Positions 1 to 28,484 of a stretch of 64,000 bases of DNA are shown here, piece by piece (the stretch's first letter is position 1; each line of letters opens with the position of its first letter). The translations under genes and the position numbers were made by a program. Under the pieces are notes generated by a model, which saw only the letters and a program-made list of their open reading frames with translations, was not told where the DNA came from and made no database searches. The stretch is taken from contig CP045477.1 of NCBI GenBank assembly GCA_009392915.1, forward strand, positions 256,001-320,000, read 5' to 3'. The DNA comes from Candidatus Forterrea multitransposorum CG_2015-17_Forterrea_25_41 (GTDB lineage: Archaea; Iainarchaeota; Iainarchaeia; Iainarchaeales; CSSED10-239).

Positions 1-2832
1 TCATTTGTAAGCATACCTGTTTCAGCTGAGTTAGGTGATGAAGCAAAAAGCCAAGTAGGAAATGTTTTAATTGAACAAGTATTTTTAGGTGGTGGAAAAC
101 TTCTAAATAAAGTCTTTGGACTAAACCCAATAGTTCACGGTGTCTTAGCAGGTGGTTTTTCTGCAATAAATACTTTTTCTCAACTTTCAAAAGTAGAAAT
201 TGATTTTTCCTTAGATAGAGATCAAGTAAACCTTTCTGAAGATAAAGAAGATTATTTTGAACCATATGATAATTACCTTTTAGATAATAAAATAGAACAA
301 GATGTAACTTTAAAAGACAACATGCTTTTAACTGATAAAAATATCTTAGATGCACAATTTATTGAAACAAAAAATTTATCTGAAATTGATAATGGAAGTA
401 ATTCTCCAAATTTTAGACTTGCAGATAAAACAAAACTTGTAAAAGTTTTAGATTCAAATAATCAAGCAGTATCTTTACAAAAAAGAGAAATATTATTTGA
501 AGATACAAATAAAACAATTGAAAACGAATATGAATATAGAACCTTTGTAGTTAAATATCCTAAATCAACATATACAGGAAAAGTAGATTATGATCTTGGT
601 TTTTCTGATCTTTTAGGATCATGGGCAAATCTTTTAGTTCCATTCTATAATGGTGCAAGTAATATTAAAATAAGTAAATTTTTAGATGGTTCTAATACAA
701 AACTTATAGAAAAAATAAATGAAGAAAAAAAAGAAGAAATACTTTTAGAACCTTTCAAATTAATATTTAATTCTTATGTTAGAGATTCACTTGAAAATGT
801 TGAAACAGACCAAGTTAACTGTGTTACTGAAGGTGGATTACTTTTAGGTCAAACAGGAACAGAAGCTCTTCCAAATATAGCTTTAGATTGGACTTATAAT
901 TCTTCAAATGCACAAACAATTTCAGGTATGAATGTTTCAAGACTTGATTGGTGTGATGCTGATTTAACTGGTGAAGAAAACAAAAACTCAATCTTTTGTG
1001 ATTCAACACAATTCTCAATTGAACTTTTAAATAAACTTGAAAAAATTCAAAACTTTGTAAAAGATAATAAAGCTTCATTTACATGTCCAACACCAGGTGT
1101 TACTCAAAGCTTAATTTCAGAAAATAACAATATAGGAATAACACAATTAAATTCAAGTTATGATTCTTCAATAATTTCTGTTGAATATCTACTTGAAGGA
1201 ACAATGAATTTAGATGATTTTAATATTGTTCCAGAAACATTAGGAAGTTTAGCTCTTACTCTTCTTAAAGACGGAGTAGAGGAAGATAGTAAAATAATAG
1301 AGTTTACTTTAGAAGACTTTATTGAAAATAAATTCTCAGGAACAGAAGAATTTGATGTTGGTTTTATTTTTGATGATGAAACTAATTTTAAAATAACTGC
1401 AATTTTAACTTTATCAGATCCATATAGTTCAGTTGATTCAAAATTAGATAATCTTTTAGAAAATGAATTTACTCCAAATTCAGAAACTTGTGATTTAGAA
1501 AAAACATCTCAAAATATAAATCTTTTCTCTAAGAATAAGAAAATAGATACTTCATTAGTAGAGTTTAGATCTTATTTAATGAAAGATGGATATTCTAATG
1601 ACTTTAAATCAGACTTTGATAGATATTATAGACATACAATAACAGCAGCTCCAGATATCTATAAAGATTATTATTATAAATATTTTACAACAGATAATTT
1701 TACTTTCCAATCATCCTTTGATTCAGAACCTGGAAGATTAATGCTTCAAGGTCCTGGAAGATACAATGTTTTATTAAAAGTAACATTTGATGATGAATGG
1801 AATTTATTTGATAAAACAACAGATGAAGTTACAGGAAAAGTTGAAGTTATTTTAACAAGAGAAATTGCACCTGAAAGAGATTCTCCTCTTTACTATATGC
1901 CATTTAATGGTCTTGTTGGAATTGATTCTGAAAATGCAAGACAAGGTTATGGTGTTGACTTTACAGGAGATGTTGTAACAGTTTCAAAACTTCAAACTAA
2001 TGAATATTTAAGAACAGAGCCTTTTACACAATCTAATACAGTTAACACAGTTTCTGTAAAAGAGTATGGTAAAAATCCAACTGACTTTTCTTTCTTAAAT
2101 AATGGACAAACAAGAGGAATGCTTCTTAATATTAATTTATCAAGTACAAAAACAAATCCAGAGCTTGTCTTTGTTCCATCAAGAGCAACTCCTGTTGCTT
2201 TAAAAGTTTCAAATCAAAATAATGATGCTTATGCTTTCTATAAGCTTGATATAGGAGCTCCTCAAGCTCAAGGTGGAGAACCTGCATTAACTCCTGGTAG
2301 TTTAGTTCCATGGACAGGTGTTGGAAATTGTCTTGACTTTACAGGAATTTCAATTTTAGAAACTTATAAAGGTAGACCAGACATACATGCAATTTCTTCA
2401 AAACTTGCACCTTCAACAACAAGTGACACTGTTTCATATGGTGTTGAATGGGAAGGAAGAAATATTACTAGAAGAGGAGATGTATTCTTAAGAACAGTCT
2501 TTTACACACCAAGTAATTTTAAAACAGGTGATGGTTTAAGTGTACTTACTTTAGATTCATATGATGATGCAGCAGCTTTCTATACATTAGGTCAAGAGAA
2601 TGCAAGTTCTGTTGAGCTTAGAAATGTTTTAGGAAACAATGCAGATATTAAATATATTAGTGAAATCTTTTCACTTGTAAACGAAAAGAAAGCATGTATT
2701 GATTATACAGCTAATAATTTAAAAATTTCATATAATCCAATAGCCGTATCAGAACCATTATTTGGTGGAGATTTATCTTCAGATTCTCAAAATGCTTGGG
2801 TTGAAAGTAAAGGCGGATGTATAATAAATTAA
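1..2832 (+). CDS. Giant surface protein, 5'-truncated by the window edge (last ~943 codons); paralog of the C-terminal part of the 2466-aa neighbour
   Basis: Frame 1 has no stop codon in nt 1-321, so the ATG at 322 in the ORF track is only an internal Met. It aligns colinearly with the last ~890 aa of ORF 2848..10248: CVTEGG..TGTEALPNIALDW vs CVTDTG..TGEGAVPNISLNW; YYMPFNGLVG..RQGYGV vs FYRMPFNGFVG..RQGYGV; WTGVGNCLDFTG vs WTGVGSGCDFSG; FLRTVFYTP vs YLRTVFYSP. Confidence 0.85.
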   Translation, partial: SFVSIPVSAELGDEAKSQVGNVLIEQVFLGGGKLLNKVFGLNPIVHGVLAGGFSAINTFSQLSKVEIDFSLDRDQVNLSEDKEDYFEPYDNYLLDNKIEQDVTLKDNMLLTDKNILDAQFIETKNLSEIDNGSNSPNFRLADKTKLVKVLDSNNQAVSLQKREILFEDTNKTIENEYEYRTFVVKYPKSTYTGKVDYDLGFSDLLGSWANLLVPFYNGASNIKISKFLDGSNTKLIEKINEEKKEEILLEPFKLIFNSYVRDSLENVETDQVNCVTEGGLLLGQTGTEALPNIALDWTYNSSNAQTISGMNVSRLDWCDADLTGEENKNSIFCDSTQFSIELLNKLEKIQNFVKDNKASFTCPTPGVTQSLISENNNIGITQLNSSYDSSIISVEYLLEGTMNLDDFNIVPETLGSLALTLLKDGVEEDSKIIEFTLEDFIENKFSGTEEFDVGFIFDDETNFKITAILTLSDPYSSVDSKLDNLLENEFTPNSETCDLEKTSQNINLFSKNKKIDTSLVEFRSYLMKDGYSNDFKSDFDRYYRHTITAAPDIYKDYYYKYFTTDNFTFQSSFDSEPGRLMLQGPGRYNVLLKVTFDDEWNLFDKTTDEVTGKVEVILTREIAPERDSPLYYMPFNGLVGIDSENARQGYGVDFTGDVVTVSKLQTNEYLRTEPFTQSNTVNTVSVKEYGKNPTDFSFLNNGQTRGMLLNINLSSTKTNPELVFVPSRATPVALKVSNQNNDAYAFYKLDIGAPQAQGGEPALTPGSLVPWTGVGNCLDFTGISILETYKGRPDIHAISSKLAPSTTSDTVSYGVEWEGRNITRRGDVFLRTVFYTPSNFKTGDGLSVLTLDSYDDAAAFYTLGQENASSVELRNVLGNNADIKYISEIFSLVNEKKACIDYTANNLKISYNPIAVSEPLFGGDLSSDSQNAWVESKGGCIIN

Positions 2833-2847
2833 AAGAGGGATTAATTA

Positions 2848-5800
2848 ATGTCATTTAAAGATGCTTGGCAAAATTTTCTAACAAAGATAGACAACAGAAT
2901 ACCAATTAAAAAGATAACAGGCCCACTTGATAAAAAAAATCCCTTAACTTCTTTTTTTATTTTTCTTTTAATAATTTTAGTTGTTTTATACTTAATCTTT
3001 GGATCAAGTATAACACTAAATAATCAAAAACTAACTGAAGTTACAATAAGACTTGCAGATTCAGATAATAATATTTTAGATAATTTTGATTTTAAGATTA
3101 GAAATATATCTGATGGAATAACAAATAGTTATGTTACAAACTCATCAGGTTCTTTAACTTTAGAACTAGATTTAAATAAAAAATATTTATTAATTATTGA
3201 TTCTCCTAATTATGAACTTTTAGAAGAAGAAATTAATTTATCTTTAGATTCTTTAAATTTTATAGTTACTGTTTTAGATACTCCAATTAATTATTTAAAA
3301 ACAGTTTACTTTGAAGATGCATTAACTAATAGCTTAATTGAAGATTCTTTAAATGTTACAATTAGATGTGATAATGGAGAAATAATTACTCCAAATACTA
3401 TTGATACTCAATCTGGAAGTGTAGAAATTAATGTTCCTTTAGAATGTGAAAATATTTATGCATCTGTAAGAGGAGATAGGTATATTGAAGAAAATCTAGA
3501 GATGCCTATTACAGAAAGTACTTTCAAGCTTGAATCTATAACTGAAATATTAGAGAGTGGAAGAGTTTCTATTTCAGTATTTTCTGGAGAAGATATTATT
3601 CAAGATTCAATAACTATTAAAATATTTTCAGTTGATGATTCAATAACTCCAATTAATACTACACAAACAACAAATGGAATTGGTTTTTTTAATTCAATAC
3701 CAGTTGGTGAATATATTGTTAAAGCAAGTGATGTTTCAAATAGATATCTTCAAAAACAAGAACAAGTTACAATAATTAAAAACTCACTTTCTGAAATTAC
3801 ATTTGATTTAATAGATACAGATACAGACTCTCCTATAATAATTGATCCTGATACAAATCAAGAAATTGTTATAAGAGAAGTTACTGTTTTTGTAAAAGAT
3901 AAGGATTCAGGAGAAATTATAGATTCTTCTTTTGATCCTAGTGTTACTTTACTTTTAGATGGTAATGAAAATATTGAACAAAGAAACCTTAATGAAGGTT
4001 TTATTTTTAATATTTCAGAGGATAAATCATATTCTCTTAAAGCAACAGCAGAAGGTTATATTCCTGGAGAAATTATTCCAATAATTTCTGGTAAAAATAC
4101 ATATATTTTTAATTTAGAAAAAATAACAATAAGTAATGTTTCAAACCTTAATATTACTGTTCAAGATGAAGACTTAAAACCAATTGTTGGTTTAAAATCT
4201 TGGATATATGATAAAGATGGACAATATATAGATCCTAGATTTGATTTTTCAACATCTGATGAAAATGGAAATATTGTTTTTGAAAATATTCCTGATCTTA
4301 ATTTTACAATAAAAGTTAAAAATAGTTTTATTGAAGAGACTTCTTCAATGTATCATAATTCTCCACCAGAAGATACTAACATAACATTACCTGTAGAGAT
4401 TGGTACTGGTACAGTTAATTTAACTGTTAAAAATAAATTAAATGATATTGTTTCAAATGCACAAGTTACTTTTTATTCTGAAAGTTTAGAAGTTTTAGGT
4501 AGTTCTTTTGCATCTTCAAATGGAACTTTAGAAAATGATCTTAAAGCTGATAAAAGAATTTTTATAAAAATAGAAGCTGATGGTTATCTTCCTTACTTTA
4601 CAGAGCTTTTTAGAATTTATAAAAATAAAACAGTTACAAAAGAAATTATTCTTGAAAGAGAAAATTTATCAGATGATGTTTCTGTTGAGTTTTTAGGACT
4701 TTATAATTCTTTAGATACTGAAGTTGAATCTTTAAAAAACAATGAAGTATTTTATTTTAAGTTTAAAGCAATCATGCCTGTTTCAAGTCAACATTTTAAT
4801 TTTGTATTTAGAGCAGGTTCTTTTACTTCAGTAACAGAAGATATTGTTTTTATAATGCCACAAAATACTTCTTTAGGTATTCCTGTTTATTATGAAAATG
4901 AGCCATTTAATGAATCAGGGAATTATTTAGAATCTAAGTTAGTTGATATTGAATTCTTAGGATATCCTGCTTCAGTTCATGAAATTACAATTCCTATAAG
5001 AATTAAAAATGCAGCTATTAATGAAAGAGTTTCTTTCTTTTATGATTCTTCAATAAATAATATTGACTTTATGTCAAATAATTTTAATCAATTACAATAT
5101 TTTATAGAAGCTACAAGTCTTTGTGGAGAAGATTTTTGTTTTTCAGGACAATATGTTGATGTTTCTCAAGACTTAAGATATGATATTTCTTCAAATAATT
5201 TAATTTCAACAAATATTCATTCAGATTATATTTTAGAATATCAAATTACAAATTCTTCTTCAAATAGTTTTGAAGATGTAAGACTTTCTACAAGAAATTT
5301 AAATAATGATGATAATCCAGTAGCTATGATTAACATTAATAGTTATTCAATTTCTGGAGAAGCAACTTCTGTTGGTCAAACAATTGAAGGAGAAAATAAT
5401 TTTAATATTCCTTTTACTGGTGATGAAATTAATTTAGAAAAAATTAATCCTTTTTCAAGTATTAATTATACTTTAAATGTAACTCCTTTAAATCTTGGAC
5501 AATCTAAACTTACAAATAGAATTATTTCTCTTCAAGAAGAAATCTATTCTCTTCCTATAAACTTTTCAGTTTCAGAACTTGAAACTATGGAAATTGATTA
5601 TGAACCTAAAAATATTGTTCCTGGACTTCCTTTTGATTTATTAGTAACTGTAAAAGATACTCAAGGAGAATATTTAGAAGGAGTAAATATTAATATTTTA
5701 CAAAAAGTTAGAAATGAGTATATTACTGTTTCAACAGGAAAAACAACTGATCCTCAAGGAAATGTAATAATAACTTTACCATCTTTAAGACCAGGAGAGA

Positions 5801-8800
5801 CTTTTGAAATACAAGCTATAAAGTCAAAATATTTTTCTCAGAATGTTTCTTTTACAATCGGAACTGATATTTTAGATGTTTATTCTCAAGAGCAAATATT
5901 ATCTTCTGAAAGTCCACTTGAAGTATTTATTCATAAAACAAATATTAATGGTGAAACTTATTCTTTAACTTTAAAAAACAAAACAAACTATGCTTTAAAA
6001 ATTAATCAATTTAATACTGAAGATTTTTCTTTTAATAAATCTTATTTACTTAATTTAGAGCAAACTGTTAATTATCTTAATAATCAAATAACTTCTCAAG
6101 CAGAAGGTTTTGTAATTCCTGCAAATGAATCTAAAGAAATTGTAATTAAGTTTGCCCCTTCAGATTCTGCAAGAACTCATCCTGTTTCAGAAGATATTTT
6201 AGGTGCAATTACAGGAAATTATTCTTTAAATAATTATGATTATCGTTTTACAATTCCTGTTAAAGCAAAATTTTCTGTTGGAAGTGGTGTTTTATTTGAT
6301 GATTGTTTAGTTGTAACTCAAAGTCCAGGAGAATGGAATACTGTTGTTTCTACAAGTACTCAAACAACTTCTTTTACAATAAAGAATACTTGTCTTTCAA
6401 AAGAAGGAGAAGTCCCAATACCTATTAAAAATGTACAAGCAAAGATATCTTCTCAAGCAGATAGATATGGTGTTTATTTCTTAAACCTTATAGGCCCATC
6501 TTCTTCAAATCAAATACAGTTGTCTGAAAATTACTATAGAGTTGTAATTGATCAAATGGCTCCTGAAGAAGAATATAGAGTTGATTTAACATTTAATACT
6601 AATGGTACAAGATTTGCAGATGTTAAAACAAATATACATCTTAATGCTCAAGTAGAAACTGAAGATGGTTTATCTTTTGTAAATAAAGAACCTAAAGATA
6701 TTTTCTTAAAAACAAATATTTCAATAATGAATCTTAATGATTGTTTTTCATATATTGATCAAAATGGAAAAGTAATTAATTCAGGTGGTCTTTATACTTT
6801 AGAAGGTATTGAAGAAAATGAATTAACTATTAGAAACAATTGTCAAGGAAAAGCTACTTTTAAAATGAATCTTTGTGATGCTTATGATTTAGGTTGTAAT
6901 GATTTAATTATTACAAATACAGATGAAGAAAATAATATTTTAAGATTTTCACTTAACGATTCTGAAAAAACAGTATATATTAAAAAAGATTCAACAAAAG
7001 CACCTGGTGCTTATATTCTTAATAACAGAGTCTCTGTTATAAATAATTTTGAAAGAGAACTTGCATCTTCTTTTGCTCTTTTAAAAATAAATGCAAAAGA
7101 TCCTAATGGTTTATGGATGGAAGATCCTTTTATAGAGATTAATGAAGATAAAGTTTCTGAGATTAAAAGATTATATAATAATAATTTAGAAAAGACTCCT
7201 TGGGATTATGCAAGTTATTATCAAGGAGAAGAAGGTTTTGGAAAATTTATAACAAATATTTATTATACAGGAAATACTTGGAAAAAATCTTTTAATCAAC
7301 ATTGGAGTAGATGTATAGCTGGAGATGATACTTGTTTATTTAACGGGGATAATTCTTTACTTTCAATGAGATTTTTACCAGAAAATCAATTAAGTAATGT
7401 TGGTGCAGAAGGATTAAGTGCAGGTGGTGCAATTGGGATAGGAATTGGTACTGCTGCAATTGTTTCATTAGTTTTAATTATGGCAAAAGTTGCTGTATTA
7501 GGAAGTCTTTTAGGACCTGTCGGTTGGATAGTTGCTGGACTTTCAATTGTTGTTGCATCAATAGCACCATCTTTCTTTTCAGATTATGATGTAGATGTGC
7601 AACCAAGGTTTTTGGATGTTTCTGAAAATAATACTATTGATAATTTAGTTGCTTTAAAAGAAATATCTGTAGATGATTTAAGTGATCAAAAAGAATTAAT
7701 TAATGTATTTGATATTACTGGTGCAAGATATTTTAAATATTTTAATAATGTTATTTTTGCACATGGAAAACTTGCTTCTAAAAAAGAAATTAAAAGTGTA
7801 CTTCCAAAATGTAATGGTATAAATAATTTAGTGCCTGTTGATCAATTTTTAAAAGTATATAATAAACCTCCATTTTGTGATGAAATAACTATAGAAGAAA
7901 CTGAAGATTCTTATATTTATAAAACAAGTTGTAATGGACAAAAATTAAATAGACTTGAATTAAATTTATTCTATAGTGCTTATTCAATATGTAAAAGTGA
8001 TGAAACATATTGGCCAGAACAAGCAGGTATAAAACCTTTACAGTTTAATTTAACTGATGAAATATATAATTTATTAGATAATGATTCTAAAAAATATTAT
8101 TTTAAAAAATATGAATTTAATCCAACTTTAGATGATTCAAATAGCACACAAGATTTAGCTTTTGTAGATTCAGATAGTGTAGGAAATTATAGATTTGGTT
8201 TCTTTTTAACAAAACCTGAAGAAACACCAAATTATGATCTTTCATTACAAGAATGTGTAACTGATACTGGAAGAACTGGAAAAACAGGAGAAGGTGCAGT
8301 TCCAAATATTTCTCTAAATTGGAATTGGGCTGAAACTGATTGTGCACAAACATATTGTGATGCAACTCAATTAACTCAAGATGTTTTAGATAGAATTAAT
8401 GATGCTGAAAAATTAATTTCATCAAATGTTGTTCAATGTCCTATAAGTAATCAAGAACTTTATGACCAAGCATTAAATGGTTCTTATAAAGTAACTGCAG
8501 AACCATCTGATGTTATTAATGAAATACCTGTTGGAAAAGTAGGTATTAATTCTGTAAAATTAGATTCTCAAAATAATAAATTAGCAATAAAAGTAGTTTT
8601 AGAAAACAGATCTGATACACCATCTTCAGGAACTATTGTTATTAGTCTTGATGATAAACAATTAGAATCTATAAAATACAGAGATGTAGCTTCAGGAGAA
8701 TATATTGAAGAAAATATAGATTATCCTGGATCTTATTCAAAAAGTATAACTGTTCCTTCTGGTATTGATAATACTAATGAAATAATTTTTGTTTATAAAG

Positions 8801-10248
8801 AAGGAATTTATGGTGAAGACTTACCTTTAACTATTGATTATTTAGCAACAAATTCACATAGTAATATGTTTGCTTCAAGTGTTGATTTATCAAGTTATCA
8901 AGCAGAAGAAATCAATGAGTGTCAAGTTCCAGCAACAACTGCAAGATTTGATGGAACAAGTTATTTAGATATGTGGCTTAATAAAGAAATGTATCCTGAT
9001 AATGTTGTAGGTTCTGGTTGGTCTCAAACTGATATTACAAAACTTAAAGAACTTTTAGAGTTTGATGCATACTTAATAACAGATAATTATAATAGTAATT
9101 TTAAAAATGACTTTGATATGGCCTTCGGTGGTCTTGCTTCAAAAGAAGATGGAGCTGGAGCTGGAAATTATGCTATAATGTCTTCTCCAACTGTGTTTTC
9201 AAATGGTTATCTTTCTAAATTATTTAAAAACAATTTAATATTTACAAAAGAATATTCAAGTGAAGAAAATGTAAATATTAATGTTCCAGGAAAATATAAA
9301 ATTAAAATTGATTTATTATTTGAAAATGGTTCTTGGAATTTTTATGAAGGTGATGATCTAGATGTAAATGCATTTGTAACTTTTAGATTTATTTCTTCTC
9401 CAGAAACAGATAGTGTTTTCTATAGAATGCCATTTAATGGATTTGTTGGAAAAACAACTTCTGGATATGATAGACAAGGTTATGGTGTTTCTTACTTAGG
9501 AGATTCTATAAGAGTTGATAATGAAAATGTAATTACAGAAGAAGATTATGGTTCAAATTCATTAAGAACAATAACTGTTACAAAATCAAATGATCTTTCA
9601 AGAATTAATTCAAATATTGAAACAAGAGGTAATCTATTAAGTATTAAATATAATCAAACAGACAATGTAGATTTAATATTTACTCCAAGCACACCAATTC
9701 CTTTACTTATGAGTATTGATAAGAGTAATAATAGCCCTCTTAATGTGATTTATAGACTTAAAGATAAGAGTGGTAATGCTATTAGTTCAACTTCTTTATT
9801 AAGATGGACAGGTGTTGGTTCTGGTTGTGACTTTTCTGGTAATTCTATATATAATATGACTTATTATGATAGATATGCTGGAGATGAAGGTGCAGTTTCT
9901 GCATATGTAGTTGATTGGCCACAAGTCTTAAGAACAGGAAAAATATATTTAAGAACTGTTTTCTATAGTCCTGAAAGAGAGTCTTATTCTTTAGAGAATA
10001 GATCTGATCAAGGTGTTATGGTTAAGTTTTCAAAGAATGGAACTAATTATTCTTCTTCAGTTTCTTTAGGTGAAGATGATTTAACAGGCATTAAATCTAT
10101 TTCAGATGTATTTAATTTAATTAAAGATAATAAAGTATGTGTTGTAAATTCATATGATGGAAAAACTTCTGATTTCTTTTATAATCCTTCAGAAATTTTT
10201 ACAGAGAAGTTTACAAAACAACCTTCTGATTCTTTAGAATGTAGTTAA
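2848..10248 (+). CDS. Giant (2466 aa) membrane-anchored surface protein: N-terminal TM anchor, tandem transthyretin/CarboxypepD_reg-like beta-sandwich repeats, internal Gly/Ala-rich hydrophobic hairpin, conserved C-terminal module of unknown function
   Basis: Long uninterrupted ORF with a GAGGG RBS 8 nt upstream and only 15 nt after the previous stop. TM segment LTSFFIFLLIILVVLYLIFG lies at nt 2944-3003. Repeated ~75-aa units have the pattern ..V.V.D..G..I......tD.nGn..f..ip.g.y.i.....Y. A second hydrophobic block lies at nt ~7402-7585. Many N-x-S/T sequons. Confidence 0.85.
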   Translation: MSFKDAWQNFLTKIDNRIPIKKITGPLDKKNPLTSFFIFLLIILVVLYLIFGSSITLNNQKLTEVTIRLADSDNNILDNFDFKIRNISDGITNSYVTNSSGSLTLELDLNKKYLLIIDSPNYELLEEEINLSLDSLNFIVTVLDTPINYLKTVYFEDALTNSLIEDSLNVTIRCDNGEIITPNTIDTQSGSVEINVPLECENIYASVRGDRYIEENLEMPITESTFKLESITEILESGRVSISVFSGEDIIQDSITIKIFSVDDSITPINTTQTTNGIGFFNSIPVGEYIVKASDVSNRYLQKQEQVTIIKNSLSEITFDLIDTDTDSPIIIDPDTNQEIVIREVTVFVKDKDSGEIIDSSFDPSVTLLLDGNENIEQRNLNEGFIFNISEDKSYSLKATAEGYIPGEIIPIISGKNTYIFNLEKITISNVSNLNITVQDEDLKPIVGLKSWIYDKDGQYIDPRFDFSTSDENGNIVFENIPDLNFTIKVKNSFIEETSSMYHNSPPEDTNITLPVEIGTGTVNLTVKNKLNDIVSNAQVTFYSESLEVLGSSFASSNGTLENDLKADKRIFIKIEADGYLPYFTELFRIYKNKTVTKEIILERENLSDDVSVEFLGLYNSLDTEVESLKNNEVFYFKFKAIMPVSSQHFNFVFRAGSFTSVTEDIVFIMPQNTSLGIPVYYENEPFNESGNYLESKLVDIEFLGYPASVHEITIPIRIKNAAINERVSFFYDSSINNIDFMSNNFNQLQYFIEATSLCGEDFCFSGQYVDVSQDLRYDISSNNLISTNIHSDYILEYQITNSSSNSFEDVRLSTRNLNNDDNPVAMININSYSISGEATSVGQTIEGENNFNIPFTGDEINLEKINPFSSINYTLNVTPLNLGQSKLTNRIISLQEEIYSLPINFSVSELETMEIDYEPKNIVPGLPFDLLVTVKDTQGEYLEGVNINILQKVRNEYITVSTGKTTDPQGNVIITLPSLRPGETFEIQAIKSKYFSQNVSFTIGTDILDVYSQEQILSSESPLEVFIHKTNINGETYSLTLKNKTNYALKINQFNTEDFSFNKSYLLNLEQTVNYLNNQITSQAEGFVIPANESKEIVIKFAPSDSARTHPVSEDILGAITGNYSLNNYDYRFTIPVKAKFSVGSGVLFDDCLVVTQSPGEWNTVVSTSTQTTSFTIKNTCLSKEGEVPIPIKNVQAKISSQADRYGVYFLNLIGPSSSNQIQLSENYYRVVIDQMAPEEEYRVDLTFNTNGTRFADVKTNIHLNAQVETEDGLSFVNKEPKDIFLKTNISIMNLNDCFSYIDQNGKVINSGGLYTLEGIEENELTIRNNCQGKATFKMNLCDAYDLGCNDLIITNTDEENNILRFSLNDSEKTVYIKKDSTKAPGAYILNNRVSVINNFERELASSFALLKINAKDPNGLWMEDPFIEINEDKVSEIKRLYNNNLEKTPWDYASYYQGEEGFGKFITNIYYTGNTWKKSFNQHWSRCIAGDDTCLFNGDNSLLSMRFLPENQLSNVGAEGLSAGGAIGIGIGTAAIVSLVLIMAKVAVLGSLLGPVGWIVAGLSIVVASIAPSFFSDYDVDVQPRFLDVSENNTIDNLVALKEISVDDLSDQKELINVFDITGARYFKYFNNVIFAHGKLASKKEIKSVLPKCNGINNLVPVDQFLKVYNKPPFCDEITIEETEDSYIYKTSCNGQKLNRLELNLFYSAYSICKSDETYWPEQAGIKPLQFNLTDEIYNLLDNDSKKYYFKKYEFNPTLDDSNSTQDLAFVDSDSVGNYRFGFFLTKPEETPNYDLSLQECVTDTGRTGKTGEGAVPNISLNWNWAETDCAQTYCDATQLTQDVLDRINDAEKLISSNVVQCPISNQELYDQALNGSYKVTAEPSDVINEIPVGKVGINSVKLDSQNNKLAIKVVLENRSDTPSSGTIVISLDDKQLESIKYRDVASGEYIEENIDYPGSYSKSITVPSGIDNTNEIIFVYKEGIYGEDLPLTIDYLATNSHSNMFASSVDLSSYQAEEINECQVPATTARFDGTSYLDMWLNKEMYPDNVVGSGWSQTDITKLKELLEFDAYLITDNYNSNFKNDFDMAFGGLASKEDGAGAGNYAIMSSPTVFSNGYLSKLFKNNLIFTKEYSSEENVNINVPGKYKIKIDLLFENGSWNFYEGDDLDVNAFVTFRFISSPETDSVFYRMPFNGFVGKTTSGYDRQGYGVSYLGDSIRVDNENVITEEDYGSNSLRTITVTKSNDLSRINSNIETRGNLLSIKYNQTDNVDLIFTPSTPIPLLMSIDKSNNSPLNVIYRLKDKSGNAISSTSLLRWTGVGSGCDFSGNSIYNMTYYDRYAGDEGAVSAYVVDWPQVLRTGKIYLRTVFYSPERESYSLENRSDQGVMVKFSKNGTNYSSSVSLGEDDLTGIKSISDVFNLIKDNKVCVVNSYDGKTSDFFYNPSEIFTEKFTKQPSDSLECS

Positions 10249-10321: not shown

Positions 10322-10684
10322 ATGAGAAGATACATTTATTTATTTTTAATCGTTTTCTTAGTTTTTCCATTTATTTCTGCACTTAGTTATGATAATGAAA
10401 TCTATGTAAACCCTTTTGTTTTTGGTGTAATTAGAGGGGATGATGGGGAAGTTATTTCAAATATTTCTGATGATGAAATAATAGATCCTGAAATGCAAGT
10501 TTCAAGTGCAAATGGGTTTACTAAAAAATCAGATCTTGATTTAACCATAAGAGAGAATCTTTTGATTTTTAAACTTCCTTCTTATCAAAAAACAAATAAT
10601 AATTCTTTAAATAAATATACTTTTATTTATAATACCTTTGATTATCCTTCAAAGAATGTAAATATTTTATTTAAATTAAATTGA
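10322..10684 (+). CDS. Small secreted protein (120 aa), unknown function
   Basis: N-terminal signal-peptide-like sequence MRRYIYLFLIVFLVFPFISA|LS. A TATA-like ttaatatatatatatt lies ~25-30 nt upstream of the ATG with no SD, suggesting a leaderless start. The stop overlaps the start region of the next gene. Confidence 0.55.
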   Translation: MRRYIYLFLIVFLVFPFISALSYDNEIYVNPFVFGVIRGDDGEVISNISDDEIIDPEMQVSSANGFTKKSDLDLTIRENLLIFKLPSYQKTNNNSLNKYTFIYNTFDYPSKNVNILFKLN

Positions 10685-10692
10685 GAAAATAT

Positions 10693-13110
10693 ATGAGATA
10701 TTTAAAAAAAATTATTTTAACAGTAATATTAATTACTTTTATTTTACTAGTTCAATCATATGTGTTTTCAGCAAGTTGTAATTTAACTCCAAATCAAACT
10801 TCTCTTAGAACTCTTTCTTTAGGTTGTAGTGGTGATGCTTGTGATTTTGTTTTAATTAAAAGTGAAGATGTATCTTCTCAATATAATTCTTGTATTGATT
10901 CTTGTGATCCTGATAATTATCCTGAAAATTACAAAACTTGTATGACTGATTGTTATGATTCTTCAATTAATTCTACAACTGATATTTCATTAAACAGTTC
11001 TTTAAGTTTTTCAAAATCTTCTGAATGCTCTGATAAAGAAATAAATGTTTCTTTAGCAGCAGATATTAATTTTGAAATGTTAAATGAAACAACTTCTCTT
11101 TCAATTTCAGGTATTGATTCTTTAAATACTAATGGAAAAGATATTATAATTTTTGTAAACAATAATGATAAACTTGGAGATGCAACTTTTAGGTTTGATT
11201 TTAGTGATTTAATAATTTCTGATACTTCTAAAATAATTATGACAACAAAAGAAAGAACTTCAATTACAGATTCTATTAATGGTGGGTGGGATGATTGGAA
11301 AAGAGATGGTATTAAACTTTATTTTAATAATTTAGAAATATTAGAAAATGCATCACTTGATTTAAATATGTATATTCCTAAAAATATTTTTAATGTAATT
11401 GATGAAATAGATATGCCTAGAACTTCACTTGCAGGTGGTGAATTAACTTTTGATGGAAACTTAATAGTTAATAATGGTAATTTAAATATTTATCTAAAAG
11501 CACAAGATAGTCAAGATGGTAGAAATTATATAGATTCTGGAAATTGTTTTGATGATCCAGCTTCACAAGGTGGAACTGTTAAAGAGGCAGGGCACATATT
11601 TTTTAACTTAAATTATTTAGAGAATAATGGTTTACTTTTTTCTAAAATGTTATCTGGAAATGGTGGTATTGGAGGTAATGGATCAAAAGCTCAGGATGGA
11701 TGTCGTGGAGATCCTCCAGGTCATGGTGGTAGAGGGGGAAATGCAGGAGATATTTTTTTATATATTAATAATATAGATAATACTAGTAATATTGATTTTA
11801 ATTTAATTGCAGGAAATGCTGGTCCTGGTGGAGATACAGGTTTTGATGGTGGAAATTCTCGTGAAAATTTTGCTATTGGAGGTTCTGGTGGTAATGGAGG
11901 AAATATTTATTTTTGTAAACCAATTTGGAATTCTGGCTTTAGTTGTTTGATAAATAATTATAATTCATTAATAAATAAAGGTAATTTTAATTTAGTTGCA
12001 AATACTGGTTTTGGAAATAATGGTGGAAATAAGAATAATCATCCTGATGAAGGTAGAGCAGGAGATGGAGGAGATGGTGGTTCTTATTTATCAAGTTTAA
12101 CGTTTGATTTTATAAGAAACTCTGGAAATTTAAATATTGCTCTTGAAACAGGTTATGGTGGTTTTAAAGGAACTACTGATGGTGGTGAAGATGGTGTTGG
12201 TGGAAGAACTCCTAATTTTTTTATTAATTTCTTAGAAAATTCTTCTGAAAATTTAAATATATTTTTAAACAGTAAACATGAAATTGGTAATCTTGAATCA
12301 GATGTTATTATTGATAAATTACAAAATGGTAGTTATCTACCAAGTATGATATATACTGTTTTTACTGATTGGACTTTTACACCTAGTGAAGAGTGTGCAA
12401 TTAGTTGTCAATCTAAATTTGATTCTTGTTATCATTTGCCTTCAGCTTGTAATAGATTTTTAGATATGTGTTTATATACTTGTGATAAAACTACAGAAGA
12501 TCTTGAAACTGTTACACAAAATAGAAAAATAAAAATTAATGATGCATGTTATGTTAAACAACCATCAAGTGCTTTAGATTATATGACTGGATTTATATAT
12601 GTTAATTCTGCAAATAAAGATGTTTTTGAAAATCTTCTTCCAGAAAATGTTTCTTCTAATCTTACTAATAACTCAGAATGTGTAATCTGTGATTATTATG
12701 ATTTTGAAAATTTAAATGAAATATTTCCAACAGGTTCTGGAAATAAATTCTTTAAAAACTATACTTTATATTCTACAGTTCAAGGAAAAATTAATGCAGG
12801 AGATTTAGAAATACATTATGCTAAAAATGATCTATCTTTTACAAAAATAAATAAGCTTTATAATCCTTTTACAAAAGAAAATAATCTCCCACTTTATTCT
12901 AATAAACAAGATATAACAAGTAGTCAAGAACCTAATTCTCTAGGTTTGTATGAATATAATATAGATGCAAGTAATCTTGAATGGTATTATGATAAAGAAA
13001 TGGACTTATCAGAAAAAGATTTATATTGTTATAATCAAAATTATAGAATTGAAGGAAAAATAGGAACTAAGATTTTTAACTTCCCATTTACTCCATTATT
13101 TAAAAATTAA
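10693..13110 (+). CDS. Secreted or anchored protein (~805 aa) with a central Gly-rich repeat region (beta-solenoid-like) flanked by two Cys-rich segments
   Basis: The ORF track starts at TTG 10681; ATG 10693 is the more likely start. N-terminal hydrophobic segment ILTVILITFILLVQSYVFSA. About five repeats follow the pattern GNLNI.L..G.GG..G (GNLNIYLKA, SNIDFNLIAGNAGPGGDTG, GNFNLVANTGFGNNGGN, GNLNIALETGYGGFKG, ENLNIFLNS). Cx3C-type Cys clusters lie at nt 10777-10953 and 12394-12483. Confidence 0.75.
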   Translation: MRYLKKIILTVILITFILLVQSYVFSASCNLTPNQTSLRTLSLGCSGDACDFVLIKSEDVSSQYNSCIDSCDPDNYPENYKTCMTDCYDSSINSTTDISLNSSLSFSKSSECSDKEINVSLAADINFEMLNETTSLSISGIDSLNTNGKDIIIFVNNNDKLGDATFRFDFSDLIISDTSKIIMTTKERTSITDSINGGWDDWKRDGIKLYFNNLEILENASLDLNMYIPKNIFNVIDEIDMPRTSLAGGELTFDGNLIVNNGNLNIYLKAQDSQDGRNYIDSGNCFDDPASQGGTVKEAGHIFFNLNYLENNGLLFSKMLSGNGGIGGNGSKAQDGCRGDPPGHGGRGGNAGDIFLYINNIDNTSNIDFNLIAGNAGPGGDTGFDGGNSRENFAIGGSGGNGGNIYFCKPIWNSGFSCLINNYNSLINKGNFNLVANTGFGNNGGNKNNHPDEGRAGDGGDGGSYLSSLTFDFIRNSGNLNIALETGYGGFKGTTDGGEDGVGGRTPNFFINFLENSSENLNIFLNSKHEIGNLESDVIIDKLQNGSYLPSMIYTVFTDWTFTPSEECAISCQSKFDSCYHLPSACNRFLDMCLYTCDKTTEDLETVTQNRKIKINDACYVKQPSSALDYMTGFIYVNSANKDVFENLLPENVSSNLTNNSECVICDYYDFENLNEIFPTGSGNKFFKNYTLYSTVQGKINAGDLEIHYAKNDLSFTKINKLYNPFTKENNLPLYSNKQDITSSQEPNSLGLYEYNIDASNLEWYYDKEMDLSEKDLYCYNQNYRIEGKIGTKIFNFPFTPLFKN

Positions 13111-13133: not shown

Positions 13134-16100
13134 ATGTCAATATTTAAAAAATCAAGAGACAAAATAGAAGCAGAAAAGCTATATGCTCTTTTATCAGACA
13201 AAACTACAAACTATACTCTAGAGGATATTAAAGAGACTATTAAAAAACAAGGTTATTCTGATAAAGTTTCTTCAATTGTTGTAAAGATGATTACAGATAA
13301 TAAACTTCCTTTAAAAGATTCAGTTAATAAAACAAAAACAAAAGAAGAAGTCTTAAAAGAATTATCAGCTTCTGTTGATAAAAACTTCTCTAAACAAAAT
13401 CCAAAAGATTCTTCAAAAGATTCAAAAAAAGAAGATAAAAATAATCAAAAAGAAAATACAAAAAAACAAGAAGATATTAAAAAAGAAGATTCTAAAAAAC
13501 AAAAAGAAGATCTTAAAAAAACAAAAGAAACAAATTTAAAAAATATTAATAAAGTTCCTTTCTTTACAAAAGTAAAAACTTTCTTTAAAAGAATATATTT
13601 CTTTTTTGAAGATAATTACTATAAGATGGTTGATGGTGTAAGTAAAGTTATACCTCTAAACAAATTAACAGACAAAATAGATAAAGTTTTCCCAAGTTTC
13701 ATATTATTCTTATTAATCTTAGCTTTATTGATATATTTAATACTTTCAGGAAGTTTATCTTTCTCTAAAACTTGGACAGTTGCTGTAGAGGTTTATGACC
13801 CATCTTCTGTACCCTTAAAAGATGTTTCTGTAACTTTAATGCTTAAAGATGAAAATTTTTCAACTTTAAAAACAGATATTTTTGGTGAAGTTATTTTTAG
13901 TGATTTTAAATCTAGAAAACAAAATATTAATTTAATAGCTTCTAAAGATAATTATGATACAGTTGAACATTCCTTTAAATTAAGTAAAAGTAATTTAAGA
14001 CAAAAGTTATATCTTCCAACAGATGTAAATTCTAAGATTGATCCTTCAGAAGAAGAAGTAAGAGAAATTTCTTTTGTTGAAAATAATACTGTTTTAATAA
14101 CAGATTCTGTATTAACTACAAATTTTTCTTGTACTAATGCAGATGTAGAACCTAATCCTACAAGAAAAGTTATTTCTTCAGGAAAGGTAACAGTTACAAC
14201 TTATTCTGGTTGTGGTGCTTTAAGAGTTTCTGTAACTTCAGATGATTTTTCTTCAATTACAAATCAAGTTATAAATTCTTCAAATAAAGTAAATCTTACA
14301 AGAATTAATCTTGATAGAGGTAATTTAGGTTTCTCTGTTAAAAACATATCTGGAAGTTCAATTCCTGGAACAGAAGTTAAAGTTTATAGTTCTTCAAACA
14401 CTACTTTTCCTCATGATACAACCACAACTGATCTTTATGGTTTAGGTGAGTTTAGTTTAGAACCTAAAAGTTATTTTTTAACTTTCTCAAAAGAAGGTTA
14501 TCTAACAAATCCTTTAAAAGGTCCTTTAACTGTTATTAAAAATGATTCTGTAAACACAGATGTAGTTTTATTTACTTTAGATGATCTTTTAGAATTTGAT
14601 TGTTCTGATGATAAATATTCACAATTTTGTATTGCTGATGAAATTGATTGTTTTAATCCAAACTTAAAACCATTTTTAATAAATAATGCTGATGGTTCTT
14701 GTACAATTGGAAGACCAGGTTATATTTCTGTAACTTTAAAAGATGTTAATTCTGGAGAACCTGTATATGCAGATATAACTTTAGATTCAAAATTAAAAGA
14801 ATCTGATCAAAACTTTTCTCTTGGTGAACATATTGCAAGGGATACTAATTTCTATACTTTTAATGTTATTGATTTCTATAATTATAGAGTAAGAGTTTTA
14901 AATACAGAAGAGAGTGGTTATCTTCAACCAGATCCAGTCACTGTAAACGGTATTGATCAAAATATAACAGTTAATTTAGAATATTCTTCTTCCCTTAACT
15001 CAGGAGATATTTCAGTAAATGTTAAGAGTGCAGATATGCCTATCTCAAATGCAAGAGTTTATTTATATAAAGAGTTTGAAGATGATTTTGTTTTAGTAAA
15101 TTCTGATCCATTATTTACAAATCAAAATGGAGATGTTAATTTTTATTCTCAAAGAGCAAATAGAGATTATTATGCTTATGCTTTACATAATGTTTTAGAT
15201 AAACAAGGAACTTCACAAACAGATGATTTAGATGTTAACTCAATACTTGATTTATCAATAGATCTTGAAGATATTCCAAAGATATTAAATCTAAAGGTAA
15301 GTCCAAGTATTTCTTATGATATTAATTTTTATAATTCTTCAGATAATCTTGTAACTGAATATGTAAGAACAGATCTTGAAGATGGAAATTCTCTTTATTA
15401 TTTTACAGGTTCTATAAATAAAGTTTATGCAGTTGTTTCTTCTTCAGGTTATACTACCTATCAAACAGATTATATTACTTTAATACCTGATCAAGAAGTT
15501 TATAAAACAGTTAATCTTTCTACACTTTCTTCTTGTGAAGACTCTAAGTTAGAAATTTTAGGTCTTTATGATGGTTCTGGAGTTTTAGAAATTGATAATA
15601 TTGATTTTGTTGAAAATGATTTAGATAAAGAATACAGATTAAAGTTTAAATATATTTCATGTACAGAAGATGAAGAATACAATCAAGCTACTTTAAGACT
15701 TGGAAGACAAGGTTTAATAGATGATGAATATTTATTCTTTGTTTCAGATCAATTTACTTCTCAAGATATAGATGTTACAAGAGGTTATAAATTTTCACAA
15801 GAACATATACCTGACTTTAATTTTGATCTTTTCAATCTTAATTATTCTCAAGATAGATCTTATGATTATTCTGGTGAAGGTTATAAATGGATTGAAATTG
15901 ATTTTGAAAAATTAAATTCTGATATCTTAGAGTTTTCAACTAACTTTAAGTTCAGAGAAGATTCAATTGTTCCTTTTGAAAACTATGTTTTAAATTATAA
16001 ATCATTTGCAAGTATTTATGATGAACTTTATTCTTTTGATCCTGTTTTAAATGAATCTTGGACAGAGATACCAATCTATCCTAATGGTTATTTTTATGCA

Positions 16101-20314: not shown

Positions 20315-20388
20315 GGATCTATGGTGTAGCCTGGATAGCACGTAGGCTTGCGGAGCCTAAAACTTGGGTTCAAATCCCAATAGATCCG
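20315..20388 (+). tRNA. tRNA-Arg (anticodon GCG)
   Basis: Hand-folded cloverleaf of 74 nt: acceptor GGATCTA/TAGATCC, D-arm GTGT-AGCCTGGATA-GCAC, anticodon arm TAGGC-TTGCGGA-GCCTA, T-arm TTGGG-TTCAAAT-CCCAA, discriminator G. GC-rich island in AT-rich DNA; no encoded CCA. Confidence 0.88.
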
Positions 20389-21198: not shown

Positions 21199-21271
21199 GG
21201 TCATAATAGTGTAGTGGTTAGCATAGGAGTCTGTGGAGCTTCTGGCCCGGGTTCAAATCCCGGTTATGACC
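21199..21271 (+). tRNA. tRNA-His (anticodon GUG) with genomically encoded G-1
   Basis: 8-bp acceptor stem G-1:C73 plus GTCATAA/TTATGAC, anticodon arm GGAGT-CTGTGGA-GCTTC, T-arm CCGGG-TTCAAAT-CCCGG. An extra 5' G pairing with C73 is the tRNA-His hallmark. Confidence 0.88.
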
Positions 21272-21284
21272 CTTTTTAACCTTC

Positions 21285-28453: not shown

Positions 28454-28484
28454 CTCTTTTACTAAACTTCTTTAATAGATTATT

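Follow-up and report, generated by a model that had tools for sequence, protein, structure and literature searches.

A hydrophobic block inside a giant surface protein

In DPANN archaea, whose genomes are very small, clusters of giant surface proteins take up several per cent of the genome, and one of these proteins raises a simple question: why does a chain already anchored at its N-terminus carry a second long hydrophobic stretch far inside it? The protein, giant 2, is encoded in a 64,000-nucleotide stretch of DNA (hereafter the window) from an Iainarchaeum/Diapherotrites (DPANN) archaeon. Its parts are as follows.

2848–10248, forward strand: giant 2, a 2466-aa surface protein consisting of signal anchor, stalk, hydrophobic junction loop and head
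2944–3012, forward strand: N-terminal signal anchor, aa 33–55 (Kyte-Doolittle 3.03; additive Hessa dG −5.6 kcal/mol)
3013–7203, forward strand: stalk, aa 56–1452, Ig-like/prealbumin-like beta-sandwich domains (Pfam; colinearity with a stalk-only protein)
7204–7710, forward strand: junction loop, aa 1453–1621, between W1452 and the FDITG motif, both conserved
7402–7578, forward strand: hydrophobic block, aa 1519–1577 (translation, Kyte-Doolittle, Hessa dG, shuffles)
7579–10245, forward strand: head, aa 1578–2466, a beta-rich module of several domains, marked by conserved Cys and by the motifs C-x-TD-x-G-x-GKTGEGAVP, CDATQ, FYRxPFNGxVG and RQGYG

The anchor is preceded by a Lys-rich 32-aa cytoplasmic tail (7 K+R, 0 N-glycosylation sequons, 0 Cys), giving a type II orientation. 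Pfam matches (CarboxypepD_reg, SpaA, Big_1, MG4) lie at aa 250–1000 and are confined to the stalk, which is colinear with a protein of 1704 aa that consists of a stalk only and is encoded separately in locus L001 (21% identity across 1420 aa, E 4e-26). The stalk ends in a conserved TPW1452DY motif, with W1452 and Y1454 nearly invariant. The junction loop that follows is made up of a variable hydrophilic stretch, the hydrophobic block itself and a few acidic residues in a short segment; it is poorly conserved across the alignment of orthologues (13 full-length proteins, 2392–2525 aa, 29–85% identity), with conserved sequence on both sides. The head motifs listed above are invariant columns in both alignments.

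The block is 59 residues long and in frame, and translating nt 7402–7585 reproduces exactly the residues quoted in the earlier note, GAEGLSAGGAIGIGIGTAAIVSLVLIMAKVAVLGSLLGPVGWIVAGLSIVVASIAPSFF(SD). It is composed mainly of small and aliphatic residues (G11 A10 I8 V8 L7 S6), with a single K and a single E. A Kyte-Doolittle scan of the whole protein finds two hydrophobic segments only (aa 29–59 and aa 1523–1579), with 19-residue maxima of 3.03 at the anchor and 2.43 in the block. The block is therefore the sole internal hydrophobic segment, and it ends 889 aa before the C-terminus. A 19-residue window this hydrophobic arose in 303/5000 shuffles of giant 2, which is not unusual for this Ile/Leu-rich proteome, and a 55-residue window in 0/5000, so it is the length of the block, not one 19-residue peak, that makes it non-random. 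Local GC rises to 0.37 (versus ~0.25) because of the Gly/Ala/Val codons.

There is no competing long ORF at the block on either strand and no Rfam match at its coordinates. Pfam, NCBIfam and PDB sequence searches with the block and head gave nothing significant; the sole hits, all far under the cut-offs, were DUF3742 (E 0.041), HrpZ (E 0.072) and Y_Y_Y (E 0.45). Two candidate explanations, a colicin-type buried hairpin and DGR-type hypervariation, were dropped on location and context, i.e., beta-rich flanks and a block that is not C-terminal. An archaeosortase/PGF-CTERM signal was also dropped: the block lies far from the C-terminus and is followed by the acidic SDYDVD.

Predicted helices, insertion energy and structure models

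Within the block, three elements can be told apart.

7411–7485, forward strand: H1, aa 1522–1546, a predicted glycine-zipper helix followed by IVSLVLIMA (sequence; dG; helical in single-sequence AlphaFold)
7486–7488, forward strand: K1547, the block's only basic residue and a candidate cytoplasmic turn (sequence)
7489–7578, forward strand: H2, aa 1548–1577, containing a P-x-G-W kink at P1557–W1560, nt 7516–7527 (sequence; dG)

This is a hairpin-type layout: two segments of at least ~18 residues (25 aa and 30 aa) with the turn formers K1547, G1556 and P1557. Monne et al. are said to have found in 1999 that a helical hairpin needs a minimum of ~31–40 residues with Pro/Gly/Lys turn formers. The block, at 57 residues by this count, exceeds that minimum, and we count this helix-turn-helix anatomy in favour of a hairpin. 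The single Lys at the mid-block turn recurs in one orthologue (P0008); others have an uncharged G-S-T-P or G-P there. The P-x-GW and the post-block motifs, i.e., a conserved (S/T)(F/W)xN(D/E)(Y/F) downstream of H2, are the block's only conserved positions across orthologues.

H1 has a true GxxxGxxxGxxxG register (G1522/G1526/G1530/G1534), and matches to [GAS]xxx[GAS]xxx[GAS] begin at six positions. Transmembrane glycine zippers (GxxxGxxxG) were reportedly described by Kim et al. in 2005; H1 resembles them in having four Gly in register and at least three small residues at i, i+4 and i+8 in a hydrophobic helix. Unlike them, it matches no curated Pfam family (the Gly-zipper families give nothing even at E ≤ 10, and the block's sole match, DUF3742, is below the cut-off) and its register is unconserved, the Gly positions not aligning column by column across orthologues. 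Oligomerisation through H1 would be putative.

On an additive Hessa scale without position dependence, insertion of the block is energetically marginal in the window clade. In giant 2, H1 scores −0.8 (best 19 residues, aa 1528–1546) and H2 +2.0 kcal/mol; most close orthologues range from +0.3 to +2.5, P0009 reaches −1.7, and in P0004 every window is at or above +3 kcal/mol. The N-terminal anchors score −5 to −7 kcal/mol on the same scale.

MSA-based AlphaFold models the block as coil (pLDDT 21–44), an excluded segment between folded domains, which in this model leaves it outside the folded head. Single-sequence AlphaFold instead gives one continuous 66-residue helix without a turn (aa 1512–1577, pLDDT up to 88). 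Neither mode resolved a confident hairpin.

The block across the family

We compared 96 full-length representatives of the family (at least 2100 aa), scoring a block where a 19-residue Kyte-Doolittle mean of at least 1.6 fell 700–1060 aa from the C-terminus. An N-terminal TM segment is present in 93/96, a block at the stalk/head junction in 56/96, and a block at other internal positions in 3/96. The heads of block-bearing representatives are only 25–30% identical; head homologues number 345 at E ≤ 1e-3, of which 116 reach E ≤ 1e-30. Comparison of the orthologues indicates that the block is ancestral to the giant 2 group.

Position is conserved, and sequence and length are hypervariable. Uncharged runs span 30–100 aa (80–100 in P0007 and L016) with composition kept, Trp/Tyr clusters at both ends and acidic residues flanking. 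Like H1, the first half of the loop in relatives is Gly/Ala-rich, and the second helices of distant relatives are often very hydrophobic (19-residue means 2.5–3.5, e.g., P0080, P0074 and L024). In most relatives the putative cytoplasmic turn lacks a positive charge and hence gives no positive-inside signal, which counts against a hairpin.

The whole block has been lost, with flanks intact, in at least three lineages (P0011/P0012, P0006 and L009). The earlier note had named orthologues lacking the block without other change as evidence that would count against its idea, and three lineages show just this. The block is thus dispensable, though usually retained.

In distant relatives the block is bracketed by two conserved cysteines, Cys-A and Cys-B, at the base of the loop. 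This holds for 42/42 representatives in which both flank motifs are detectable: 36 have Cys in both scored columns, and six (-C-H-D-D-, with Cys-B one residue ahead of the scored column) were added by eye. Inner cysteines in the listed loops number 0 or 2, and in the wider family H2 leads directly into acidic residues and Cys-B (..FGEDPC..). We infer that the bracket, as a predicted disulfide, places both ends of the block on the same, outer side. Giant 2 and the window clade lack both cysteines; aligned by eye, TPW1452DY appears to be the counterpart of the Cys-A motif C-x-W, with Thr at the Cys-A position. Three block-less relatives (P0035, P0108 and P0129) keep the Cys pair around a Trp-rich amphipathic loop of 30–42 aa.

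Neighbouring paralogues and the stalk/head boundary

Two paralogues of giant 2 lie in the same window.

1–2832, forward strand: g1, a head-only paralogue of about 965–973 aa (orthologues in seven distinct loci; head 31% identical to giant 2)
13134–19577, forward strand: g3, a giant paralogue of 2147 aa, TM-anchored at aa 181–213 and with a shorter head module

The window begins ~22 codons into g1, inside its signal peptide (..SFVSIPVSA|E..), and the start of the gene was placed from its closest relative, L033, and six further loci (L001/L006, L007, L009, L014, L010 and L011); the one contig that encodes the identical protein starts later than the window. In these seven loci the g1 orthologues are 965–1034 aa long, each opening with a classical signal peptide whose cleavage motif is (V/I/Y)xA, e.g., ..PVSA|N, ..LYA|D and ..VYA|D. 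Upstream of the g1-type gene is a separate stalk-only gene (1600–1950 aa) with a TM anchor. Stalk and head are therefore separate genes in the adjacent paralogue, and the junction of giant 2 corresponds to a gene boundary there.

The earlier note had taken g1 for a giant whose first visible residues sit at the equivalent position but are less hydrophobic. The position is plausible; the size is not, as g1 is a secreted head-only protein of ~970 aa with a cleavable signal peptide. Its H2-like conserved helix GLNPIVHGVLAGGFSAINTF (nt 118–177) plausibly corresponds to the latter half of the block, since the two occupy one position and have a P-x-x-(H/W)-G in common when aligned by eye, although BLAST found no similarity between this region and the block. 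The positional counterpart of H2 itself, NPIVHGVLAGGFSAINTF, is only moderately hydrophobic and part of the secreted mature protein. Paralogue 1 also occurs in fused form in distant genomes (L020, 2957 aa; L026, 2739 aa), where the junction has no block; the sole internal hydrophobic window of L020 (aa 1019–1039) is far from the junction. As for g3, a Kyte-Doolittle scan bears out that it has no internal hydrophobic block, only the shorter module.

An origin of giant 2 from a stalk gene and a head gene had also been suggested. The separate halves in the adjacent paralogue support two ancestral genes in the sense of a gene boundary, with which fusion and fission would both be compatible, but no real split of giant 2 itself was found. 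Two apparent splits were rejected: P0015 (991 aa) stops at a contig end, and P0021 (974 aa) at a run of N in a scaffold gap (GCA_015657915.1).

At the homologous junction the head-only paralogues have cleavable signal peptides of canonical form, which suggests one alternative, namely that H2 is an internal signal peptide. Giant 2 would then be a polyprotein, cut by signal peptidase into a membrane-bound stalk and a free head, like the paralogue gene pair. Several orthologues do place small residues close to where H2 ends (SWA-A-TSW, MAS-TW, FLA-N). However, the −3/−1 motif is not conserved among orthologues, and in giant 2 the best candidate, ASIA|P, is followed at +1 by Pro, a residue that prevents cleavage by signal peptidase I. 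The ..FGEDPC.. that follows H2 in the wider family would be an unsuitable c-region, and a disulfide would keep the two halves joined. We therefore regard this cleavage as very improbable.

A probable hairpin in the archaeon's own membrane

Several lines of indirect evidence place both flanks of the block outside the cytoplasm. In giant 2 they carry 28 and 14 N-glycosylation sequons and 12 Cys each, against none of either in the N-terminal tail; g1-type heads have their own signal peptide; the Cys bracket would hold the two ends on one side; and the block can be lost whole. Loss of the whole block with the flanks kept would leave the topology unchanged only if the block crosses the membrane an even number of times, or not at all. 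Under the translocon partitioning rules reportedly set out by Hessa et al. in 2005 and 2007, the Sec translocon would integrate helices as hydrophobic as those of the distant relatives, and with the head outside a second crossing would be required.

The reading we favour, to which we give about an even chance, is that the block enters the cytoplasmic membrane of the archaeon itself as a helical hairpin, with both large domains outside. The N-terminal signal anchor would initiate Sec-dependent export of the ~1450-aa stalk, and the glycine-zipper helix H1 would halt transfer. After a tight turn (K1547, or a G-P turn in relatives), H2, kinked at P-x-GW, would resume export and deliver the 889-aa head to the outside. 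Giant 2 would in this way be pinned to the membrane twice, once by its N-terminus and once where stalk meets head, an arrangement probably ancestral in Iainarchaeia giant surface proteins. Across most of the family Cys-A/Cys-B would staple the hairpin's base on the outside; the window clade has lost these cysteines, and its putative hairpin would be dispensable and of marginal hydrophobicity. The neighbouring paralogue is split into two chains at the same point, the head having its own cleavable signal peptide. Where 80–100 residues are uncharged, there could be three or four segments instead of two, which counts against a two-helix hairpin.

A re-entrant hairpin with both domains outside was among the readings of the earlier note and is the best supported, on the sequons and cysteines, the paralogue signal peptide, the Cys pair and the whole-block losses; the marginal insertion energy and the lack of a hairpin in AlphaFold leave it unproven. 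Polytopic membrane proteins reportedly offer a parallel in the helical hairpins studied by Monne, Nilsson and von Heijne in 1999, in which two TM helices are joined by a tight Pro/Gly/charged turn. The block resembles these in its ~57 uncharged residues, mid-block Lys/Gly/Pro, same-side flanks and GxxxG in one helix. It differs in being the sole internal membrane element of a ~270-kDa extracellular protein, and in being hypervariable, dispensable and energetically marginal. Two further observations count against a hairpin. The Cys-paired 30–42-aa loops of block-less relatives are too short to span a membrane, and the junction of the fused paralogue-1 giants has no block, with the H2 counterpart falling within secreted g1.

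Some of the same evidence would suit a block with no function at all, e.g., the head's old signal peptide, left as a slowly decaying relic or tolerated low-complexity linker at a fusion/fission seam. The junction is a gene boundary in a paralogue whose head has a signal peptide, the block is hypervariable in sequence and length, at least three losses were independent and left the flanks intact, the window clade has lost its bracket cysteines, AlphaFold gives a low-confidence coil, and fused paralogue-1 giants have no junction block. A relic is nonetheless hard to reconcile with retention at the same position in 56/96 representatives (3/96 elsewhere) despite 25–30% head identity, with strict exclusion of charged residues over 31–100 aa and aromatic belts at the ends, or with a conserved flanking Cys pair. 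An exposed 55-residue hydrophobic stretch would also be costly unless buried in lipid or protein. We consider a relic unlikely, if the least so of the alternatives to the hairpin.

Possible insertion into another membrane

A hydrophobic loop closed by cysteines on the outside of a cell could also act on a different membrane. On this account the block is an exported loop, disulfide-stapled in most of the family, that inserts into another membrane such as that of a host cell, much as the internal fusion loops of viral fusion proteins or the membrane-insertion loops of toxins do. The Gly/Ala/Ile/Val composition of the block resembles that of fusion peptides, which we count in favour, and class I viral internal fusion loops are disulfide-bracketed (Ebola GP2 Cys511–Cys556, ASLV Env). 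The conserved Cys-A/Cys-B around a hypervariable hydrophobic or Trp-rich loop, the interfacial-type Trp-rich loops of block-less members, and the marginal insertion energy in the window clade all fit such a role.

The likeness is closest in the Cys-bearing relatives, where a Gly/Ala/Ile/Trp-rich loop with a Cys-closed base sits in a large anchored surface glycoprotein. Giant 2 departs from the viral pattern, having lost both cysteines and having no heptad repeats or helical core: what AlphaFold models after the block is a beta-rich head, with no coiled-coil machinery. The loops of the family are also longer, often fully TM-like, and without sequence or fold similarity to class I loops, and a structural search for viral fusion proteins gave no match (BFVD TM-scores ≤ 0.09). 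The loop occupies the stalk/head junction instead of a distal tip, and three lineages dispense with it. Moreover, no known mechanism moves helices with means of 2.5–3.5 through the Sec translocon without lateral release. On balance we think insertion into another membrane improbable.

The biology of the group can be argued both ways. According to passages of PMC5905446, a related Diapherotrite with a like cluster was inferred to be host-dependent, with its giant proteins proposed as mediators of cell-cell interaction, which would suit insertion into a host membrane; that paper also speaks of Diapherotrites lineages thought to be free-living, which would not. The likeness between that organism and the window is one of description: the same phylum and a tandem cluster of giant N-terminally anchored proteins. 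The passages of PMC5905446 on which we draw do not describe a domain architecture, internal block, Cys bracket or split stalk/head paralogue, and our search for literature on giant DPANN/Diapherotrites surface proteins found only the Forterrea note.

The hairpin and the partner-membrane loop would differ in consequence. Either way, one paralogue class has a position-conserved hypervariable hydrophobic loop at the stalk/head seam, the very point where its neighbour is split. With a hairpin in the archaeon's own membrane, the family would gain a first architectural model, in which both ectodomains are tied to the membrane; if the block is only a second anchor, this is useful but ordinary membrane-protein anatomy. 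If instead the loop engages a partner membrane, it would become a candidate for one of the molecular elements by which DPANN archaea contact their hosts, inserting in the host membrane to attach or to help open contacts that may supply lipids and metabolites. It would then be a cellular analogue of viral internal fusion loops.

The gene cluster

The paralogue pair invites comparison with the Sulfolobales S-layer, which is built from a membrane-anchored stalk protein, SlaB, and a separate outer protein, SlaA. The pairing of an anchored stalk-only protein with a secreted head-only protein is similar, giant 2 being the fused form. SlaB differs in being anchored C-terminally, no sequence or fold relationship was detected, and a lattice of the giants would be hypothetical.

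The cluster runs in the order giant, stalk-only, head-only, giant 2, a ~120-aa protein, an ~800-aa protein and giant 3. This order is identical in L001, L006, L007 and L033 (the contig of L007 stopping short on the right-hand side), and L002/L003, L005 and L009–L015 show related orders in which genes are added or missing. Overall, the cluster in the window is syntenic in more than 15 Iainarchaeum/Diapherotrites MAGs.

A hydrophobic block at the stalk/head junction of giant 2

Giant 2 is a 2466-aa surface protein (ORF 2848-10248, forward strand), and the block sequence quoted in the earlier note is an exact match to the translation of window 7402-7585 in its frame. A Kyte-Doolittle scan of the whole protein found only two hydrophobic segments, and 889 aa separate the end of the second from the C-terminus:

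aa 29-59, N-terminal anchor, 19-residue Kyte-Doolittle maximum 3.03
aa 1523-1579 (as delimited by the scan), block, 19-residue maximum 2.43

The block has the composition G11 A10 I8 V8 L7 S6, with one Lys (K1547) and one Glu, and its first half contains three GxxxG motifs in register (G1522/1526/1530/1534). Giant 2 is rich in Ile and Leu, and a 19-residue window as hydrophobic as the block is not rare in its shuffles (303 of 5000); an equally hydrophobic 55-residue window occurred in none of the 5000. The block has a GC content of 0.37 vs ~0.25 for its surroundings because of its Gly/Ala/Val codons, and its coordinates matched no RNA family and neither strand has a competing ORF there. Just upstream (window ~7255-7350, aa ~1470-1500), giant 2 has a private insertion of ~30 aa with two cysteines (..YYTGNTWKKSFNQHWSRCIAGDDTCLFNG..), which is missing in all 13 orthologues.

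Conservation and loss of the block

There are 13 full-length giant 2 orthologues at 29-85% identity, and the block is present at the same position in 11/14 aligned proteins. It is hypervariable in both sequence and length (31-95 consecutive uncharged residues), with only two conserved elements in the region: a P-x-G-W kink in its second half and a (S/T)(F/W)xN(D/E)(Y/F) motif just after it. Both ends are rich in Trp/Tyr, and the flanks are acidic. Three proteins (P0006, P0011 and P0012) have no block and retain both flanks. In a neighbour-joining tree of heads, block-less P0011+P0012, P0006 and the L009 orthologue are each nested among block-bearing sisters, and the outgroups have the block, so having the block is the ancestral state, with a minimum of three losses.

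We searched exhaustively with HMMER, using giant 2 aa 1400-2466, and obtained 345 homologues at E <= 1e-3; our survey covered the 96 representatives retrieved that are 2100 aa or longer. Nearly all (93/96) have an N-terminal transmembrane segment, and 56/96 have a 19-residue Kyte-Doolittle mean of at least 1.6 located 700-1060 aa from the C-terminus; such a window occurs elsewhere internally in only 3/96. In many distant relatives the second helix has a 19-residue mean of 2.5-3.5, and these are unambiguous transmembrane segments. The repeated losses bring up the reading of the block as a decaying relic of the seam, which we consider unlikely.

Two cysteines bracket the block in distant relatives

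In distant representatives, the block is preceded by a conserved ..V-x-V-x-A-x-x-C-(A/D)-W-x-E-A.. (Cys-A) and followed by ..(E/D)-D-P-C.. (Cys-B), with L-x-D-Y-(V/I)-I-N-L-x-G ~8 residues later. Using profile HMMs of the flanks, 36 of the 42 representatives with both flanks detectable have Cys in both scored columns; the other six (-C-H-D-D-) have Cys-B one residue before the scored column when aligned by eye, making 42/42. We infer that Cys-A and Cys-B form a disulfide. Such a conserved pair at the loop's base would place both loop ends together in the oxidising, extracytoplasmic space.

The loop from Cys-A to Cys-B is 30-177 aa long and, among the loops listed, contains either no inner Cys or two, as CPPC, CPVC or CWIC where the second helix begins. 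One sub-family (P0031, P0062, P0066, P0076, P0135, P0139, P0040, P0041, P0053) has CPPC, CPVC or CPAC exactly at the start of that helix, where it may form a redox or metal site at the interface with the membrane. P0035, P0108 and P0129 lack a transmembrane-like block; their Cys pair surrounds a 30-42-aa Trp/Phe-rich amphipathic loop (e.g., DWDDSNGRDWSILWEGIGGYWILHDFDFDAAWDAFWDLFNDP), which looks like an interfacial membrane-binding element rather than a spanning one. The window's clade has Thr at the Cys-A position (TPW1452DY) and no Cys-B (equivalence by eye), and W1452 and Y1454 are nearly invariant within it.

A two-gene paralogue of giant 2

What the earlier note called giant 1 is not a giant. 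Its orthologue in L033, the closest relative (whose giant 2 is 85% identical to ours), is only 973 aa, with N-terminus MEKIKKNIKFLGIFLIIAIMLSF.. preceded by an AT-rich spacer, and by this comparison window position 1 falls ~22 codons into the gene, within the signal peptide. Proteins of this type (965-1034 aa) are encoded at seven distinct related loci, L033 included. This count leaves out two loci that duplicate some of the seven, and also L005 (signal peptide present, helix divergent) and L022 (divergent, no such signal peptide). In the proteins counted, a classical signal peptide, with a (V/I/Y)-x-A cleavage motif, precedes a conserved Gly-rich helix, ..NP(I/V)(I/L)HG(V/A)(L/I)(A/G)G...

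Directly upstream, a separate gene encodes a 1600-1950-aa protein anchored by an N-terminal transmembrane segment. BLASTP aligns this stalk-only protein colinearly along giant 2 aa 64-1392 (E 4e-26, 21% identity across 1420 aa), and the head-only protein matches aa 1803-2447 (31% identity, E 4e-41), so the paralogue is a two-gene version of giant 2. Its gene boundary lies at the position of the block. In a by-eye alignment, the head-only helix GLNPIVHGVLAGGFSAINTF lies at the block's second half and has the P-x-x-(H/W)-G pattern in common with GPVGWIVAGLS..; BLAST found no similarity between the two. A signal peptide at this boundary also raises the reading in which the block is an internal signal peptide and giant 2 is cleaved like a polyprotein, which we regard as very improbable. 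The stalk-only protein of L001 (1941-7055) has a ~315-aa C-terminal extension (aa ~1390-1704), Ala/Lys/Thr-rich then globular, with no giant 2 counterpart; this extension is a candidate for where the secreted head-only protein docks.

Stalk and head thus occur as separate genes in the adjacent paralogue. Two giant 2 orthologues that look split at the hairpin are artefacts: P0015 runs into a contig end, and P0021 of L005 (annotated as 1448 + 974 aa) is frameshifted by an N-run:

L005 9860-9880 (NCBI GCA_015657915.1, NPIE01004308.1), scaffold gap causing the giant 2 split

In more distant Iainarchaeum MAGs, this paralogue is a single fused giant (L020 3029-11900, 2957 aa; L026 3662-11880, 2739 aa) with no block at the junction. 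Fusion/fission state and block presence therefore vary independently between paralogue lines.

Membrane topology

An AlphaFold2 model of aa 1420-2466 from a 15-sequence alignment (mean pLDDT 71.8) has a beta-rich head, most of which reaches 55-90 pLDDT per ten-residue block; the hydrophobic block is coil at pLDDT 21-44 and so lies outside the folded head. Single-sequence AlphaFold2 makes aa 1512-1577 one continuous helix with no turn (ten-residue block means 67-88). The segment thus has helical propensity; a hairpin is not resolved in this model. Additive Hessa-scale estimates are -0.8 kcal/mol for aa 1528-1546, +2.0 for aa 1554-1572 and -5.6 for the N-terminal anchor; orthologues range from -1.7 to +2.5 kcal/mol, and in P0004 every window is at +3 or above.

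The stalk contains 28 N-glycosylation sequons and 12 Cys, the head contains 14 and 12, and the Lys-rich N-terminal tail has neither; the homologous head of the paralogue has its own signal peptide. Both flanks of the block are thus predicted to be extracytoplasmic, in which case its number of membrane crossings is even or zero. Archaeal export of such proteins is co-translational via Sec, and the translocon releases strongly hydrophobic 20-residue segments laterally into the membrane, so the default outcome for hydrophobic family members is a helical hairpin embedded in the membrane of the producing cell. In the window protein, a 25-aa glycine-zipper helix (aa 1522-1546) would be followed by turn formers (K1547, G1556, P1557) and a 30-aa second helix (aa 1548-1577), an anatomy that fits such a hairpin.

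Given the even-or-zero crossings, lateral release via Sec and this anatomy, we favour, at roughly even odds, the block serving as a second anchor in the membrane where stalk meets head. Mechanistically, it would resemble known helical hairpin anchors. In the window's clade this anchor would be relaxed (marginal energetics, cysteines lost, block dispensable). The own-membrane hairpin and the stalk/head gene fusion, offered earlier as separate readings, are complementary, not exclusive. We think it quite unlikely that the loop is exported and engages some other membrane; the host-membrane reading, if true, would be much more novel than a hairpin anchor.

Gene cluster and neighbours

The MAGs with related loci carry the names Candidatus Iainarchaeum or Diapherotrites (DPANN archaea), and archaeal genes neighbour the cluster (split RpoB, RpoA'/A'', ATP-dependent DNA ligase, aEF-2). 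The conserved tandem order is giant, stalk-only protein, head-only protein, giant 2, ~120-aa protein, ~800-aa protein and giant 3. The same kind of giant cluster has been noted in a Diapherotrite with a proposed role in cell-cell interaction, with no dissection in the passages searched (PMC5905446). The cluster itself was noted before; in the open-access literature searched we found no prior description of the conserved-position hypervariable junction loop (with its Cys bracket in most family members), the repeated loss of the block or the split stalk/head paralogue, which are new as far as searched. Two secreted proteins follow giant 2:

10322-10684, forward strand, 120-aa secreted protein, just upstream of the 809-aa protein
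10681-13110, forward strand, 809-aa secreted protein, Cys-rich at its ends, with central Gly/Asn-rich repeats (GGNGG / GNAGxGG)

Both are conserved in related loci that reach far enough downstream, and neither has a Pfam or NCBIfam match. Giant 3, a 2147-aa paralogue, begins with a ~180-aa Lys/Glu-rich cytoplasmic extension before its transmembrane anchor (aa 1-180, window 13134-13680), compared with 32 aa in giant 2. Most giant 3 orthologues keep it, with the transmembrane segment at aa 126-249 in most related loci and near aa 32-74 in L011-L013. Further downstream, cognate tRNA genes adjoin their synthetases (window 20315-20388, 21200-21272, 21454-22770, 28380-28454, 29527-30990): tRNA-His lies 180 nt upstream of the histidyl-tRNA synthetase gene, and tRNA-Pro lies ~1 kb upstream of the prolyl-tRNA synthetase gene, a gap that contains a single 320-aa ORF.
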